A DNA stretch of 64,000 nt from Bacteroidota bacterium (GCA_018266755.1 JAFDZW010000001.1:85635-149634); one strand, 5' to 3'. Counted from the first letter of the stretch, positions 5,560 through 8,978 are shown. The notes: generated by a model not told the origin, from the sequence alone. Numbers and translations are program-made.

Positions 5560-6012
5560 ATGAACTATCGTACCATGAATACTACTGTCACCGCATCTTC
5601 CGTTCTCGGAAGGTCGCTTGCGCTTCTTTGCATCTGTGGATTATTTTCCTGTTCGCAGCCGTCGTCCGGTCCGAACGAGGTTTCGGTCGTGCCAACCTTC
5701 CAGAAGGACGGGGCCATGAGGGCTCAGTCCGATGATAAGAAGAAGGACAAAAAACTCTCGATCAGGAATAAATCAAAGCATGATGTTACCGTCGACGTCA
5801 CCTTCGACAGCGGGGATGCAGATTCATTCTCCTGCAATAGCGGGACAAACACCGACTATCAAGTGGGAGGGACCGCATCGGCGCTGAGCCTCAATAGTAC
5901 CTCGATTTCATCCAATACCGCCACAACCATCACGCTCAGTGACGGCTCACAAATCACTGTGACGTGGGATGGGAATGTTATTGTTGTTGTAGACACTCTT
6001 GAGATGAACTAA
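5560..6012 (+). CDS. Small secreted lipoprotein, member 1 of a conserved C-terminal-tail family (…TVTWDGNVIVVVDTLEMN)
   Basis: Start taken at MNYRTMNTTVTASSVLGRSLALLCICGLFSCSQ (signal peptide plus a Cys lipobox-like site). Ser/Thr-rich mature part of about 120 aa. The C-terminal 19 aa are nearly identical to the ends of the ORFs finishing at 8384 and 8854. Confidence 0.6.
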   Translation: MNYRTMNTTVTASSVLGRSLALLCICGLFSCSQPSSGPNEVSVVPTFQKDGAMRAQSDDKKKDKKLSIRNKSKHDVTVDVTFDSGDADSFSCNSGTNTDYQVGGTASALSLNSTSISSNTATTITLSDGSQITVTWDGNVIVVVDTLEMN

Positions 6013-6053
6013 ATTCTCTATTGAAGTAGTACGCGGTCCTTCGTAGAGGAAGT

Positions 6054-7583
6054 TTAGATTTTCCCTTCTTTATGCTTTTGGGTGAGCATACTTACCGTCG
6101 TTTGCCATAACCATTCAAACGGTAGTATCTGAAGACCGTCCTGGGCTTCTACGGCGTCAGACGTCCGTTGGCTCATTCGCTCAAAATAGGGGAGTGCCTT
6201 ACGACGCGTAATCTCCGGATCGAACGAATTACCTTCCATAATTTGGAGCATCTTAAAGAAAAGGGCACTACGTCTATTAGAATTGACCTGGAGGTATCGA
6301 TTTCTATAGGTACGCAGTGCATCCATTCGTCCGATAATCGAGCCAAAATCATTCTGCTCGAGCAGTAACATAATGTGAAGAATCAGAATTGCGATGTTGT
6401 ACCCCCGTTTGTCGCGTTTGAACGTCGGGACTGTCCGTAGGAAACGCTCGGGATCGATCCTGCGGCGATCCTGTCTACGGGACTGTATGCCGCTTTGACG
6501 CAATGCGAACTCAAGGTAGAGATCAAAAATCTGCCACTTCTCTTTTGCTTCGTTGCTGAGGAATTGGAATCGCGGATGGTTCATCGTCCGAGTTAACACG
6601 TCCTCAGCTTCTGAAAAGTGCAGGGTGTGGATCTCAAGCAAAAACCAGTATTCCATCAACACGAACCAGTTCGCTCCACCTTCCGGGAATAGCTCGATGC
6701 ATCGATCGACAGTCTTCCTTCCTTCAGTGTAGGATCGAAGGTAGAGGTAGCAGCCAAGTTTCTGGATCTGAAACTCACCAAATAAGATCTTGTATGCAAT
6801 ATGGCTATTCTTCGCAAGATAATTGTCAGCTTCGTCACAGATCTTCACAGCGTCGATGTAGAGCTGGCCGATCTGAAGAAACGCAATTTTCAGTCGGTAG
6901 TAATAGAGTAAGAAACTAAACGAATGGTAGGCTTCCGGTACCGCTTCGAGCTGTTGAATATAGGACAGACAGATATCTTTGAGATCTGGTTGCTCAGCCA
7001 CCGATCTTGTGAAGCGAATCGTTAGTCGTTCATAGAATTCCTGGGCCAGCAGTTCTGCCTGAAACGTACCTTGTAACTCGTTTAGGAGGTTCGTATATCG
7101 ATCATACTGCGTATAGGAACCACTGAAGCGGCTGTAATTGCGCAATACGGTGGCTGCTTGGATCGCATTTATGGTGAAATTGTACTTGAGCGCCTGCTTA
7201 AGCGTGCTTTCGGCGAGTTTGATTGCACTGCTTCTCGCACCGAATTGCGTGAGGGTGTTCATCCAGAATATCGCTTTTCCATTATGGTAGCGGGCGACCA
7301 ACTGCTCGGAAAAGTCCTTTTCCCGGATATCAAGGAAGAAGAGCAGATTCATCATCTTCTTCTTGAGTCGATTTTTGAGGGTTGTATACTTGGTGTCTAT
7401 TTGAGCCGAGCCATAGACATATTGGGCGGCCTCAAGATCAGAACCTATTTTTCCGTCCTTAAGACCAATATATAGTTTGGAAACATAGTCCGTCTCGTCT
7501 GCGGAAGCATCAGAATCAATTAAATCTGGATTCTTTTCCCGAAACCGAGTGACAATTTGAGCGATTTCGCGTAGATACTGCAT
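6054..7583 (-). CDS. 509-aa cytoplasmic helical-repeat (TPR-like) protein, candidate regulator/peptide-binding partner of the flanking small-protein genes
   Basis: Long ORF with no signal peptide or transmembrane segment and a repeating amphipathic-helix pattern (e.g. AIQAATVLRNYSRFSGSYTQYDRYTNLLNELQG, YHSFSFLLYYYRLKIAFLQIGQLY). GC is visibly lower than the flanks. It is divergent from or flanked by the three tail-family genes. No helix-turn-helix was recognised by eye. Confidence 0.55.
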   Translation of the reverse strand: MQYLREIAQIVTRFREKNPDLIDSDASADETDYVSKLYIGLKDGKIGSDLEAAQYVYGSAQIDTKYTTLKNRLKKKMMNLLFFLDIREKDFSEQLVARYHNGKAIFWMNTLTQFGARSSAIKLAESTLKQALKYNFTINAIQAATVLRNYSRFSGSYTQYDRYTNLLNELQGTFQAELLAQEFYERLTIRFTRSVAEQPDLKDICLSYIQQLEAVPEAYHSFSFLLYYYRLKIAFLQIGQLYIDAVKICDEADNYLAKNSHIAYKILFGEFQIQKLGCYLYLRSYTEGRKTVDRCIELFPEGGANWFVLMEYWFLLEIHTLHFSEAEDVLTRTMNHPRFQFLSNEAKEKWQIFDLYLEFALRQSGIQSRRQDRRRIDPERFLRTVPTFKRDKRGYNIAILILHIMLLLEQNDFGSIIGRMDALRTYRNRYLQVNSNRRSALFFKMLQIMEGNSFDPEITRRKALPYFERMSQRTSDAVEAQDGLQILPFEWLWQTTVSMLTQKHKEGKI

Positions 7584-8178
7584 TCGTGTTATTGTCTGTT
7601 AAATGATTGTTTTACATAGCTTTAAGCTATAAATACAGTTTATTCGGAAGGATGGTCGAACATCAAATCCTGCGAAAATCAAGAGAAAAAACTATTTTGA
7701 TCGTGTGATAATTTCAAATTTTTTGATTTCTTTTAATTCCGGTCGCAAGCTATTTTTGTATAGTGATTCACGAACAAGATACAGAACGCTTGATTCTTGA
7801 GTCTGAGGCTTTCTGGGGGATCATTGAATTTTGAAGTTTGACCGAGTTTTAAGTTTGCAACGGCACCTAGAGACGACCAAGCCGATAGCGGCGGTCGAGA
7901 GTGAGTGAAAAATAGAGAATAGGAAGCATCTGCCAGGGCTCGCAGAACTTTTTGCGCCCCGCAAATGTGATTTTTTGCACTCAAGCGTGCAAAAAGATCG
8001 ATAGTTCATTGAAAATCGAGCGATTGTCAAGTGATTGTCATCTAATTACTTGTGGGTGTGTGAAACAAAAAATCACCACCTCTAACCACTTGTTGGCACT
8101 GAAATTAACTTAATTTCGCCATGTCTTTCGAGTGATAAATAGGGGTGAACTGTTCGCAATAAGTGGGTTTGCACAGTG

Positions 8179-8186
8179 TAATTTTG
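8179..8186 (+). promoter_or_regulatory. Candidate Bacteroidota-type -7 promoter element TAATTTTG upstream of the small-peptide gene
   Basis: TAATTTTG matches the TAnnTTTG consensus of FCB-group sigma-A promoters and lies about 50 nt upstream of the ATG at 8238 in an AT-rich intergenic region. A TTTG at 8168-8171 is a possible -33, but the spacing is atypical. Confidence 0.2.
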
Positions 8187-8237
8187 TATCACGATAGTCA
8201 AACAAGTAGTTTTTCAATCACAAAACGACTGACGACA

Positions 8238-8384
8238 ATGGTACAAGCAATCGTACTCGCGGCTCAAATTACGTTTCAGGTGCTTTTTGGAGCGACCACC
8301 ACATCGGTCACTTCTACCGGCACAACAGTCGGACCGACGCAGACGGGTGCGATCGTTGTGGTTGATACACTTGAGATGAACTAA
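8238..8384 (+). CDS. 48-aa precursor-like peptide, member 2 of the conserved-tail family (MVQAIVLAAQITFQVLFGATTTSVTSTGTTVGPTQTGAIVVVDTLEMN)
   Basis: Internal Met of track ORF 8163-8384. It has a hydrophobic N-terminus, a Thr/Gly-rich middle and the same C-terminal AIVVVDTLEMN-stop as its neighbours. No Cys. The longer 73-aa start at 8163 cannot be excluded. Confidence 0.45.
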   Translation: MVQAIVLAAQITFQVLFGATTTSVTSTGTTVGPTQTGAIVVVDTLEMN

Positions 8385-8410
8385 TTCTCAATTCTCACAC
8401 CTGCCCCACA

Positions 8411-8854
8411 ATGACGATGAAGACCATCTTTACCACCATGAACCGTTTCGCAAAGTTCACATCGGTTGCAATTCTTTTTGCTGCTCTTGCAGTATTTACT
8501 TCTTCATGTGCACCGTCAACGGACTCGGAAGCTCCGACGTCGATTGGTGTTCAGAAGAACGCTGTGACATCGACAACAGCTACATACACAGAGACGGTTA
8601 ACAACAAGAGCTCTGAGTTTGTAAACTTCACGTTGAATTTAGCCGATAATTCGCAGTTCTTTTACGGTTCGGCTCCGTATACCAACGTTGGTGTGATTAC
8701 TCCGGCCTCGGTGGTGGGCGTCATGGCAAATGGGAAGAATATCCCGATTAATACGCCGACAGTGGTAACCATGAGTGATGGCAAGAATGTCACAGTGACG
8801 TGGGATCCCACGACCAATGCGATCGTAGTCGTCGACACGCTCGAGATGAACTAA
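8411..8854 (+). CDS. Small secreted lipoprotein, member 3 of the conserved-tail family (…VTVTWDPTTNAIVVVDTLEMN)
   Basis: Signal peptide MTMKTIFTTMNRFAKFTSVAILFAALAVFTSSCAP with a lipobox-like SSC. Thr/Ser-rich body. C-terminal 21 aa are paralogous to ORFs 5560-6012 and 8238-8384. Confidence 0.6.
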   Translation: MTMKTIFTTMNRFAKFTSVAILFAALAVFTSSCAPSTDSEAPTSIGVQKNAVTSTTATYTETVNNKSSEFVNFTLNLADNSQFFYGSAPYTNVGVITPASVVGVMANGKNIPINTPTVVTMSDGKNVTVTWDPTTNAIVVVDTLEMN

Positions 8855-8945
8855 GTGATTCATTGAAAATTGATTGTTTGATTTTGGGTTCTCTCAACTA
8901 CAAGTACTATCCATCCAGTGATTAGTAGCTTGTATCCCGTGGCAG

Positions 8946-8978
8946 GGGCATTCTTTCGGGAATGCCCATTTTTTTTTT
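8946..8978 (+). terminator. Rho-independent terminator after the small-protein genes
   Basis: Hairpin GGGCATTC-(TTTCGG)-GAATGCCC followed by a T10 run. Confidence 0.6.

Follow-up and report, generated by a model that had tools for sequence, protein, structure and literature searches.

At this locus of a Bacteroidota bacterium three small genes with the same C-terminal residues surround a gene for a helical-repeat protein, which raises the question of whether they form a peptide-receptor signalling system of the kind known from Firmicutes or whether the common tail is a sorting, processing or docking signal. In the window, the whole stretch of 64,000 nucleotides that was analysed, three plus-strand open reading frames end in IVVVDTLEMN directly before the stop codon, as the initial annotation had it, and a six-frame scan of the 64 kb finds the tail only these three times. 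Protein A (5560..6012, from the ORF and tail scan; tail at 5980-6009) has a lipoprotein-type signal (…LLCICGLFSC), an ~90-aa domain and the C-terminal tail, and its paralog protein B (8411..8854, tail at 8822-8851) also starts with a lipoprotein-type signal (…AVFTSSC), signal peptides and lipoboxes being assigned by eye throughout. The bodies of these two ~150-aa proteins had been described as unrelated, a description that must be withdrawn as they are 43% identical over 87 aa (E=2e-14) and constitute a small family with a secreted ~90-aa domain that appears β-rich from its sequence pattern. The third gene encodes a 48-aa peptide precursor (8238..8384, tail at 8352-8381) in which a hydrophobic N-terminal helix free of charges (MVQAIVLAAQITFQVLFG) is joined by a Thr/Ser/Gly linker to the tail. 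Protein B is probably co-transcribed with the peptide as its gene starts 27 nt after the peptide gene, and a strong intrinsic-terminator-like hairpin with a T run (8946..8976, plus strand; hairpin at 8946-8967 with a 9-bp stem, five G-C pairs and T9) closes this operon. Orthologs of protein A occupy the same position in loci L001-L011 and L156-L157, and orthologs of the peptide are present in L001-L011 and L034. An independently called 48-aa gene on another contig is 98% identical to the window peptide (P0211), and protein B has a 100% match in a MAG protein and a further 75% relative with an identical tail. No match for the tail carriers is found in Pfam, NCBIfam, PADLOC or PHROGs. Queried with the 48-aa sequence, an index of 5.8 billion proteins returned one candidate and missed known tail carriers, so that tail-only matches cannot be counted in it.

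The identity of the three tails is a property of the peptide and not of the DNA. Over 52 nt the tail regions of the window are only 63-75% identical, and any two of the three tails differ at five or six of their nine degenerate codons with all ten residues identical, which rules out a DNA repeat or gene conversion as the cause. Among nine Kapaibacterium-like loci tail identity is 95% within a locus (19 pairs) compared with 32% between loci, and in the within-locus pairs 95 of 178 degenerate codons for identical residues differ (53%). Identical residues carried by different codons indicate selection on the peptide rather than gene conversion, and by this codon comparison the identity of the tails is maintained by selection. 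In its general form the tail begins with four aliphatic residues and continues with Asp or Asn, two variable positions, Glu and one or two further residues. Paralogs within a single MAG, PL23a_bin.6, have distinct tails (IISAIDELAG, IVVLDEIVEKY, ILVLDEVEA, IVIFDELEV and IVIIEDLEL), and these paralog-specific tails together with the within-locus identity point indirectly to cognate, co-evolving peptide-receptor pairs such as characterize RRNPP systems. In the Chitinophagales both receptor (76-100% identical) and tail show strong conservation in place of diversification, and covariation of the two is inseparable from phylogeny, the variable tail residue being mostly clade-specific.

The protein encoded between the tail carriers (6054..7583, minus strand) is a receptor-like regulator of 509 aa, predicted to be cytoplasmic. 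Its gene had been called divergent, which is correct with respect to the peptide and protein B genes and incorrect for the protein A gene, to which it is convergent. An HTH-like four-helix domain, recognized with weak scores, occupies residues 1-92 (7308-7583), and a TPR-like superhelix residues ~93-509; the AlphaFold2 model (mean pLDDT 86.6) is all-helical and, with the fold searches, bears out the helical-repeat, TPR-like assignment made initially. The best solved structural neighbours in the fold search are Rap, NprR, AimR and PlcR, with LGN and MalT domain III scoring nearly as high as these RRNPP receptors. The likeness to the RRNPP ligand-binding domain is one of fold, TPR matches being intrinsically generic. 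The HTH-like domain resembles the sigma-4, LuxR or OmpR types and is not of the XRE type, and the protein has neither of the RRNPP effector domains, the XRE-type HTH and the Rap three-helix bundle. No similarity to any RRNPP family is found in Pfam or NCBIfam, and searches of PADLOC and PHROGs and profile searches of PDB sequences give no match for the receptor. The only recurrent weak match is to NNH6, in 7 of 53 N-domains with a best E value of 2e-4. The 509-aa family has no enzyme fold, no catalytic-type invariant residues, no Cys/His ligands and no match to an enzyme family. It comprises about 1,800 or more clusters at 50% identity (1,807 at E<=1e-30), has no Pfam or NCBIfam model and is a large group of unannotated regulators with HTH-like and TPR-like domains.

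The association of tail-bearing genes with the TPR-like gene, which had been raised as a possibility for related genomes, recurs in many loci and several orders. Receptor homologs in at least four Bacteroidota orders are paired with an opposite-strand small ORF ending in a related tail, the hosts being Kapaibacterium, Chitinophagales, Saprospiraceae, Cytophagales (Hymenobacter) and other Bacteroidota. Across 155 receptor-homolog loci the tail pattern ends 53 of 8,757 stop-to-stop segments near the receptor gene compared with 14 of 18,079 distant ones, an ~8-fold enrichment, and all 53 receptor-adjacent segments lie on the strand opposite the receptor gene. Of the 115 loci with enough upstream sequence, about half have, by heuristic scans, a divergent ORF with a tail-type ending. 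As in RRNPP systems, a gene for a small pro-peptide lies beside that of the receptor, in the window (8238-8384) and in these loci. The Chitinophagales receptor homolog is paired with a divergent ORF of 20-25 aa ending IVIIDxDEL, and in 24 distinct DNA versions of this motif the non-consensus bases number 19, 0 and 79 by codon position compared with 118, 119 and 115 in the 30 nt after the stop, a pattern of codon-position variability from which these tiny ORFs are concluded to be coding. In the larger part of the family (Chitinophagales, Saprospiraceae and others) receptor and peptide occur without the domain protein. Many partner peptides are 20 aa long and leaderless, some are 20-22 aa, the small peptides have no positively charged n-region of the classical Sec kind, and some of their leaders end in FGG or FGA. 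The Hymenobacter partners end in GWGDG repeats in place of the tail. The cassette constitutes a conserved module with vertical inheritance.

The region between the divergent receptor and peptide genes contains candidate regulatory elements. A bipartite box, GTGAT-N14-TGTTC (8132..8155, plus strand), is a candidate operator situated ~25 nt upstream of the -7 box TAATTTTG of the peptide operon (8179-8186, plus strand). It has one match in 64 kb and is found at equal distance in 13/13 Kapaibacterium-like loci, with GTCAC-N14-TGTAA at the equivalent place in 12/12 Chitinophagales loci. The near-palindrome GTGAACTGTTCGC (8145-8157) overlaps this box, and the palindrome occurs 78-85 nt upstream of the peptide ATG in five loci against a background of 0.035 per kb; the palindrome TGAACnGTTCA is not a general operator, being restricted to the close clade of the window, and the bipartite GTGAN-N14-TGTTC is the broader element. 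A second bipartite box, GTGATA-N13-TGATT (7705..7728, plus strand), lies ~120 nt upstream of the receptor ATG in a block conserved in six loci and is followed by a -7-like box, TATTTTTG (7751-7758, plus strand). GTGATA-N13-TGWTY has two matches in 64 kb, both in this receptor-peptide intergenic region, against 0.10 expected, and the most enriched intergenic 6-mers are GTGATA and ATGTGA (~6-fold). A conserved non-coding stretch (7765..7975, plus strand), which separates the second promoter-like unit from a terminator-like hairpin (7951-7965), is a candidate small RNA or long leader, with uncertain membership in the module. Its 20-nt block AGTTTGCAACGGCACCTAGA (7852-7871) is identical in the window, L156 and L157, and a 19-nt core of this block recurs in L001-L003 with few substitutions. 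Rfam assigns no family to the intergenic region, identifying only the tRNA, the consensus fold is weak (-10 kcal/mol from three sequences, one of them represented by too short a stretch), and a search of the cassette shows no complementary target.

Downstream of the cassette lies a gene for a 516-aa flavin amine oxidase (Pfam E=1.7e-56), as annotated initially; its proposed Tat export agrees with an SRRAFL twin-arginine motif, the Pfam TAT_signal match being sub-threshold, and the gene is a separate transcription unit. The preceding terminator and the absence of the oxidase from about half of the orthologous loci (it is present in 5 of about 10) rule it out as a core component. The neighbouring efflux genes encode a CusB-type membrane fusion protein, a TolC-like protein and an RND pump and are ruled out as the peptide exporter; among the neighbours examined no exporter, protease or permease, and no peptidase-ABC exporter, is linked to the cassette. 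Genes for LiaF-like envelope-stress membrane proteins recur at syntenic positions in the Kapaibacterium-like loci. The locus lies on the chromosome, with synteny throughout a family-level clade, and a mobile-element origin is unsupported since flanking synteny is kept in related loci with receptors 47-65% identical.

The reading that we favour, with modest confidence, is that the cassette is a cognate peptide-receptor regulatory module working like RRNPP or Rgg/SHP-type signalling. The RNPP-like proposal of the initial annotation is thus partly supported and is the best-supported explanation, by the receptor-peptide pairing, the within-locus tails and the promoter box; by sequence the cassette is not a demonstrable member of the RRNPP family. 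The 509-aa protein would be a cytoplasmic regulator with the N-terminal HTH-like domain fused to a TPR-like ligand-binding superhelix, and the three flanking genes would be alternative precursors of one ~10-residue C-terminal peptide, (A/V)IVVVDTLEMN, two of them Sec/lipoprotein-exported with an ~90-aa domain and the third the 48-aa peptide with its uncharged hydrophobic leader. The precursors would exit the cytoplasm, the tail would be cleaved at the Gly/Asn/Ser-rich junction that immediately precedes its aliphatic residues, and after re-import it would bind the TPR groove and switch the regulator at the GTGAN-N14-TGTTC boxes, to which the HTH-like domain is presumed to bind. Boxes placed ~25 nt upstream of the peptide-operon -7 box and between the divergent genes may allow feedback on both peptide and receptor expression.

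Several observations count against such a module. A cytoplasmic receptor in a diderm cell requires uptake of the peptide across two membranes. The small peptides start without the n-region typical of Sec signals, and genes for an exporter, a protease or a permease are not linked to the cassette. RRNPP receptors are approached through generic TPR fold matches with no sequence-level link, the Chitinophagales receptor and tail are conserved, the Hymenobacter partners carry GWGDG, and no reason is apparent for placing a signal on a folded secreted domain.

Some of these features would suit an intracellular partner switch operating without export, in which the peptides are retained, perhaps held at the inner membrane by the N-terminal helix, and their tails sequester or activate the TPR regulator; through the tails of the exported proteins the regulator would sense unexported precursor and so act as a sensor of secretion or envelope stress. 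The uncharged n-regions and 20-22 aa length of some peptides, the lack of a linked exporter or permease, the Chitinophagales module with its highly conserved single-copy, undiversified character and the syntenic LiaF-like proteins are consistent with it. However, clear signal peptides or lipoboxes on two of the three tail carriers of the window and on their orthologs would normally place the tail outside the cytoplasm, and stress sensing needs no paralog- or locus-specific tails, making this switch unlikely. Less probable still is that the genes encode RiPP or bacteriocin precursors, with the N-terminal helix as leader, the tail as core and the 509-aa protein as a recognition, immunity or modifying factor. 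A variable C terminus does follow a conserved leader across orders, some leaders have the FGG or FGA ending, and the secreted flavin oxidase adjoins in about half of the Kapaibacterium-like loci, but the 509-aa family shows none of the enzyme features listed above, the neighbours (CusB/TolC/RND efflux, LiaF-like proteins and an inconsistent oxidase) include neither an enzyme of a known RiPP class nor a peptidase-ABC exporter, the oxidase is behind a terminator and often absent, many partners are leaderless, and the presence of an identical "core" on a folded secreted domain is at odds with this reading.

A C-terminal sorting or docking tag, for which the TPR protein would be a dedicated cytoplasmic chaperone or targeting adaptor, also seems very improbable. 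TPR proteins are commonly chaperones that bind C-terminal peptides and the tail is at the extreme C terminus of every carrier. Sorting tags such as the T9SS C-terminal domain, PEP-CTERM and LPXTG are conserved across species and borne by many cargoes, whereas here only two or three adjacent genes per locus carry the tail, its three copies in 64 kb all lie in the cassette and its sequence shifts from locus to locus, so the generic sorting signal that had been offered as an alternative is unsupported. The larger carriers moreover already have N-terminal Sec signals, and an HTH-like domain with a conserved promoter box is not what a tag would predict. The least probable explanation, to which we give very little weight, is extracellular strand complementation, where the tail is the last β-strand of the secreted domain and free peptides exchange the same strand, controlling oligomerisation or surface assembly, with the TPR gene linked by regulation or chance only. 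Identical strands would account for the need for identity, the tail follows a β-hairpin-like …V.V.W.G. segment in the domain proteins and some small peptides keep the preceding strand too, e.g. TVTVTNPNGGVIIINPEENN; against this, receptor and peptide occur without the domain protein in most of the family.

Read as a peptide-receptor module, the cassette most resembles, within the RRNPP(A) group, the Rgg/SHP quorum sensing of streptococci (with ComR/XIP and RopB/LCP). The tiny shp genes lie divergently to rgg, and the mature peptides derived from the C termini of their products contain an aliphatic run together with Asp/Glu, as in DIIIIVGG and EGIIVIVVG (PMC13361665). The likeness extends to a tiny ORF divergent from a cytoplasmic regulator with HTH and helical-repeat domains, to an active part formed there by the C-terminal 8-10 residues and placed here, by analogy, in the last ~10 (IVIIDxDEL, IVVVDTLEMN), and to an operator at the peptide promoter, here a candidate. 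In contrast, the acidic residue precedes the aliphatic run there and follows it here, the receptor is ~285 aa there and 500 aa here without sequence homology that could be detected, the HTH-like domain here is of a type other than XRE, the system resides in a diderm Bacteroidota, and Rgg/SHP uses PptAB, Eep and Opp, counterparts of which are not linked to this locus. Rap/Phr, NprR/NprX, PlcR/PapR and AimR/AimP, RRNPP receptors with Sec-exported pro-peptides, are described from Firmicutes and their mobile elements (PMC10075063, PMC9765709). Here the hosts are all Bacteroidota rather than Firmicutes (Bacillota), their plasmids or phages, some precursors carry a folded ~90-aa domain that is secreted or part of a lipoprotein, the leaders have no positive charge and the locus is chromosomal and syntenic. 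MalT (LAL family) and SARP/AfsR differ in sensing small molecules or nucleotides, in having ATPase modules and another domain order and in having no tail-matched peptide gene. DegS reads the C termini of outer-membrane proteins (YxF), being a periplasmic PDZ protease that recognizes a generic motif on many proteins; reading the end of an exported protein as a signal is what it would have in common with the proposed module, DegS having no locus-specific code. Literature searches found no prior description of such peptide signalling in Bacteroidota.

Signalling in the Bacteroidota is, to our knowledge, poorly understood, and the cassette may tentatively be taken as part of a Bacteroidota-wide cell-to-cell peptide communication through a cytoplasmic receptor, independent of or only anciently related to Firmicutes RRNPP. 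If this is true, the signal resides in the last ~10 residues of the products of the unannotated 20-70-aa partner genes, and Kapaibacterium-like bacteria would also store it at the C terminus of a folded secreted or surface lipoprotein, an added precursor architecture that we do not know to be described for any quorum-sensing system and that could lead to protease-gated or contact-dependent release. The analysis identifies tiny partner genes, most of them uncalled, together with a candidate operator and a simple rule for the sequence of the putative ligand, and cultured carriers (Hymenobacter busanensis, H. koreensis and H. segetis) are usable as test organisms. Confirmation would extend peptide-receptor signalling to a major diderm phylum of soil, water and sludge.

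The three open reading frames described in the initial annotation as sharing a C-terminal tail are present, each ending in IVVVDTLEMN followed by a stop codon. They comprise two lipoprotein genes (5560-6012 and 8411-8854, both +) and the gene of a 48-aa peptide (8238-8384, +), and translation of the 64-kb window in all six frames shows the tail in these three places only. The bodies of the two ~150-aa proteins, which had been called unrelated, are those of paralogs with 43% identity over 87 aa (E=2e-14). The tail-region DNA (52 nt) is 63-75% identical among the three copies, and 5-6 of 9 degenerate codons differ in each pair of tails with all ten residues the same, placing the match at the level of the protein and not of the DNA. 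The gene of the 509-aa protein (6054-7583, -), the proposed receptor, is divergent from the peptide and second lipoprotein genes as claimed, but is convergent with the first lipoprotein gene. The peptide and second lipoprotein genes are spaced by 27 nt and have a strong terminator-like hairpin (8946-8967) on their 3' side. One of the tail carriers has a 100% match among the proteins of a MAG labelled 'Bacteroidetes bacterium'. A tRNA gene (5363-5449, +; Rfam 53.9 bits) lies directly 5' of the first tail-bearing gene. G+C content is 44.7% in the region 6001-8000, which consists mostly of the receptor gene and the adjoining ~420 nt of the 650-nt intergenic region, compared with ~54% in the remainder of the window; synteny argues against a recent transfer.

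Every Kapaibacterium-like locus encoding a receptor homolog has its own tail, common to the secreted protein and the peptides: IVVIDTNEV(S/N) in L002, IV(V/I)ADTLEVN in L003, IVVGDTQENN in L004, IVTTDQTVVY in L007, IVIVDQNEL in L008, VVIIDHSEL in L009, VIIINPEENN in L010 and IVVTDSQEGF in L011. Identity over the last ten residues is 95% within a locus (19 pairs) and 32% between loci (234 pairs), whereas at identical residues with degenerate codons 95 of 178 codons differ. These locus-specific tails with the same residues and differing codons indicate that selection on the peptide holds the tails identical as the code drifts between lineages. Among closer relatives, a receptor of 89% identity is accompanied by IVVVDTLEMN and one of 77% identity by IAINDTLEMN. 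The common segment starts exactly where a Gly/Asn/Ser-rich junction ends, in domain proteins and peptides alike. Judged from these sequences, the cognate co-variation of the tails that characterizes RRNPP systems, the cytoplasmic peptide-receptor families of Firmicutes, is indirectly apparent.

The AlphaFold2 model of the 509-aa protein is all helical (mean pLDDT 86.6, pTM 0.80), and a Foldseek search of the PDB with this model returns generic TPR matches only. Its structural neighbours, with scores in parentheses, are Rap of phage phi105 with its peptide (16.1), Rap of pLS20 (15.3), LGN (14.4), NprR with NprX (14.2), MalT domain III (13.7), AimR (13.7 and 12.9), RapH (13.4), RapI (12.6) and PlcR (11.3). 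With an HTH-like head joined to a Rap/NprR-like TPR body, the protein has the architecture of RRNPP transcription factors. The HTH class is however different from theirs, the N-domain being of neither the XRE nor the Rap type, and sequence homology to them is undetectable; the HTH scores of the N-domain are weak and the TPR folds generic. Weak matches to Pfam NNH6 (NACHT N-terminal helical domain 6) occur in 7 of 53 N-domains of receptor homologs (best E 2e-4).

The 509-aa protein has no match in Pfam, NCBIfam, PADLOC or PHROGs. A word-indexed search gives 61 full-length relatives, and an exhaustive profile search of 50%-identity clusters gives 3,555 at E<=1e-3, of which 1,807 reach E<=1e-30. 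Genome and metagenome scans place receptor homologs in 155 loci, the named hosts being Kapaibacterium (itself a member of Bacteroidota), Chitinophagales, Saprospiraceae, Cytophagales (Hymenobacter), one Flavobacteriaceae MAG and Calditrichaeota MAGs. Kapaibacterium-like loci keep the gene order of the window: the TolC and membrane fusion protein genes come first, the secreted domain protein and receptor genes next, then those of one or two small peptides and, in some loci, the amine oxidase, and last those of LiaF-like membrane proteins. This order indicates that the locus is vertically inherited and not mobile. In Chitinophagales the module adjoins clpP-clpX; several loci there (L012, L013 and L017; ~7600-9100, -) have two response-regulator genes convergent to the receptor homolog, and loci outside that set have other neighbours.

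Pairing of receptor and tail extends beyond the Kapaibacterium-like clade. In the 155 loci, a pattern made up of an aliphatic run of four, then D/N/H, one or two variable positions, E or D and at most two more residues ends 53 of the 8,757 stop-to-stop segments close to the receptor gene versus 14 of 18,079 distant ones; each of the 53 is encoded on the other strand from the receptor. A pro-peptide gene adjacent to the receptor gene is present, as in RRNPP systems. The Chitinophagales partner is a divergent ORF of 20-25 aa, ~450-480 nt upstream of the receptor gene (for example MKKRIHSKIPVGVIVIIDNDEL and MERMLYSLLFALGFRNIVIIDMDEL). Over the eight codons of its tail, 24 distinct DNA versions depart from the consensus 19, 0 and 79 times at the first, second and third codon position, compared with 118, 119 and 115 by position in the 30 nt past the stop, a pattern that shows these tiny ORFs to be coding. 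Most Chitinophagales loci (L013-L038, alignment columns 6-38) carry a 32-nt conserved element, GTGAACCTAATTTATGAAACAAACCAACTGTCT, directly after the tiny ORF. Other lineages have partners of 45-90 aa whose uncharged leader is conserved (M-D/E-h-h-I-x-x-L-L-x-L-G-h-I-x-S-P) and whose tails include GIAIFDLEGGD and SITILDIYEEN; the Hymenobacter partners share this leader, but their C-termini are GWGDG repeats. In one MAG with several receptor paralogs, the tail differs for each. In L057 and L149 a secreted domain protein takes the divergent slot that a small peptide fills elsewhere, and in L007 a small peptide takes the slot that the domain protein fills in other Kapaibacterium-like loci, so the precursor types are interchangeable.

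The 650-nt receptor-peptide intergenic region is conserved in blocks. In all 13 Kapaibacterium-like loci the bipartite box GTGAN-N14-TGTTC lies on the peptide strand ~25 nt upstream of TAnnTTTG, the Bacteroidetes -7 promoter consensus, which itself precedes the first peptide ATG by ~50 nt; the equivalent position in 12 Chitinophagales loci holds GTCAC-N14-TGTAA. The box has a single match in the 64 kb of the window (8132-8155), and its relaxed form has two against 0.10 expected, both in this intergenic region. The second copy (7705-7728), followed by another -7-like box, is ~120 nt from the receptor ATG. Hexamer enrichment across these intergenic regions is highest for GTGATA and ATGTGA (~6-fold). 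An autoregulated peptide promoter would look like this arrangement, and we infer that the 509-aa protein binds the box as a candidate operator. Between the two box copies, ~200 nt (7751-7975, +) are bounded by another promoter-like unit on one side and a terminator-like hairpin (7951-7965) on the other. This stretch, possibly a small RNA or long leader, has no matching Rfam family. A 20-nt block there (7852-7871) is identical in the window and the Kapaibacterium-like L156 and L157, its 19-nt core recurring with a few substitutions in L001-L003, and a nearby hairpin (7971-7996) has compensatory changes.

The Tat-signal flavin amine oxidase (8997-10547, +) is downstream as the initial annotation had it, but it is not a consistent part of the cassette: the hairpin intervenes, marking a separate transcription unit, and the gene is 3' of the peptide genes in only 5 of ~10 Kapaibacterium-like loci (L001, L002, L003, L010 and L011). 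It may be a regulated target of the module; two Saprospiraceae loci (L063 and L144) have a relative of 24% identity within a few kb of the receptor homolog. Nearly all Kapaibacterium-like loci keep, in synteny with the cassette, the genes of two membrane proteins with LiaF-type transmembrane regions (10554-10733 and 10758-11327, both -; Pfam LiaF-TM, with a weak NCBIfam LiaF C-terminal match). The efflux operon (1-4502, -), encoding a TolC-like protein (3195-4502, -), a CusB/HlyD-type membrane fusion protein (2198-3442, -) and an RND pump (-) extending past the left window end, is syntenic in some related loci, yet seems to have no connection with the cassette. A 21-nt palindromic element, GGACGGACTCTCAGTCCGTCC, has four copies in 42-nt units within 11395-12037, where an 82-nt direct repeat is also duplicated (11536-11617 and 11674-11755); these resemble REP-like intergenic repeats.

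A ligand-receptor reading is the most economical for the cassette. The tail would be the ligand and the TPR body its receptor, the HTH-like head would work at the box, and the carriers would be alternative precursors undergoing export, cleavage at the junction and re-import. This RNPP-type proposal of the initial annotation stands as the leading hypothesis, unproven and held at somewhat better than even confidence, with secretion and import presumed. RagAB-type SusCD transporters are oligopeptide importers, and Bacteroidota could plausibly take up peptides of ~10 residues; no exporter or permease linked to the cassette was found among the neighbouring genes. This lack of a linked transporter, the atypical leaders of the small peptides, the low HTH scores, the generic nature of TPR folds and the carriage of a signal on a folded secreted domain are weak points. 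Each rival accounts for some of the features and fails others. An intracellular partner switch or secretion-stress sensor is unlikely, being at odds with exported carriers. A precursor system for a natural product or bacteriocin, for which no enzyme is found, is decidedly improbable, and less probable again is a sorting tag read by a TPR chaperone, since the code is locus-specific and has only two to three carriers. Strand exchange outside the cell, with the domain protein absent from most of the family, is the least credible.

The ligand-receptor module would follow the logic of Rgg/SHP, in which a tiny divergent ORF ends in 8-9 residues with Asp or Glu and an aliphatic run (PMC13361665), and that of the Sec-exported precursors of Rap/Phr, NprR/NprX and PlcR/PapR. 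It would work like an RRNPP system, yet is not a demonstrable member, and its host lies outside Firmicutes. The large RRNPP surveys consulted analysed Firmicutes only (PMC10075063; PMC9765709), and no published description of such a system in Bacteroidota was found in the literature searched. The new elements are the receptor family, the phylum and a precursor with its signal on a folded secreted or lipoprotein domain. The receptor family is large, unannotated and found in cultured species, among them Hymenobacter busanensis MA3, H. koreensis JCM 17924 and H. segetis, and is open to direct testing.
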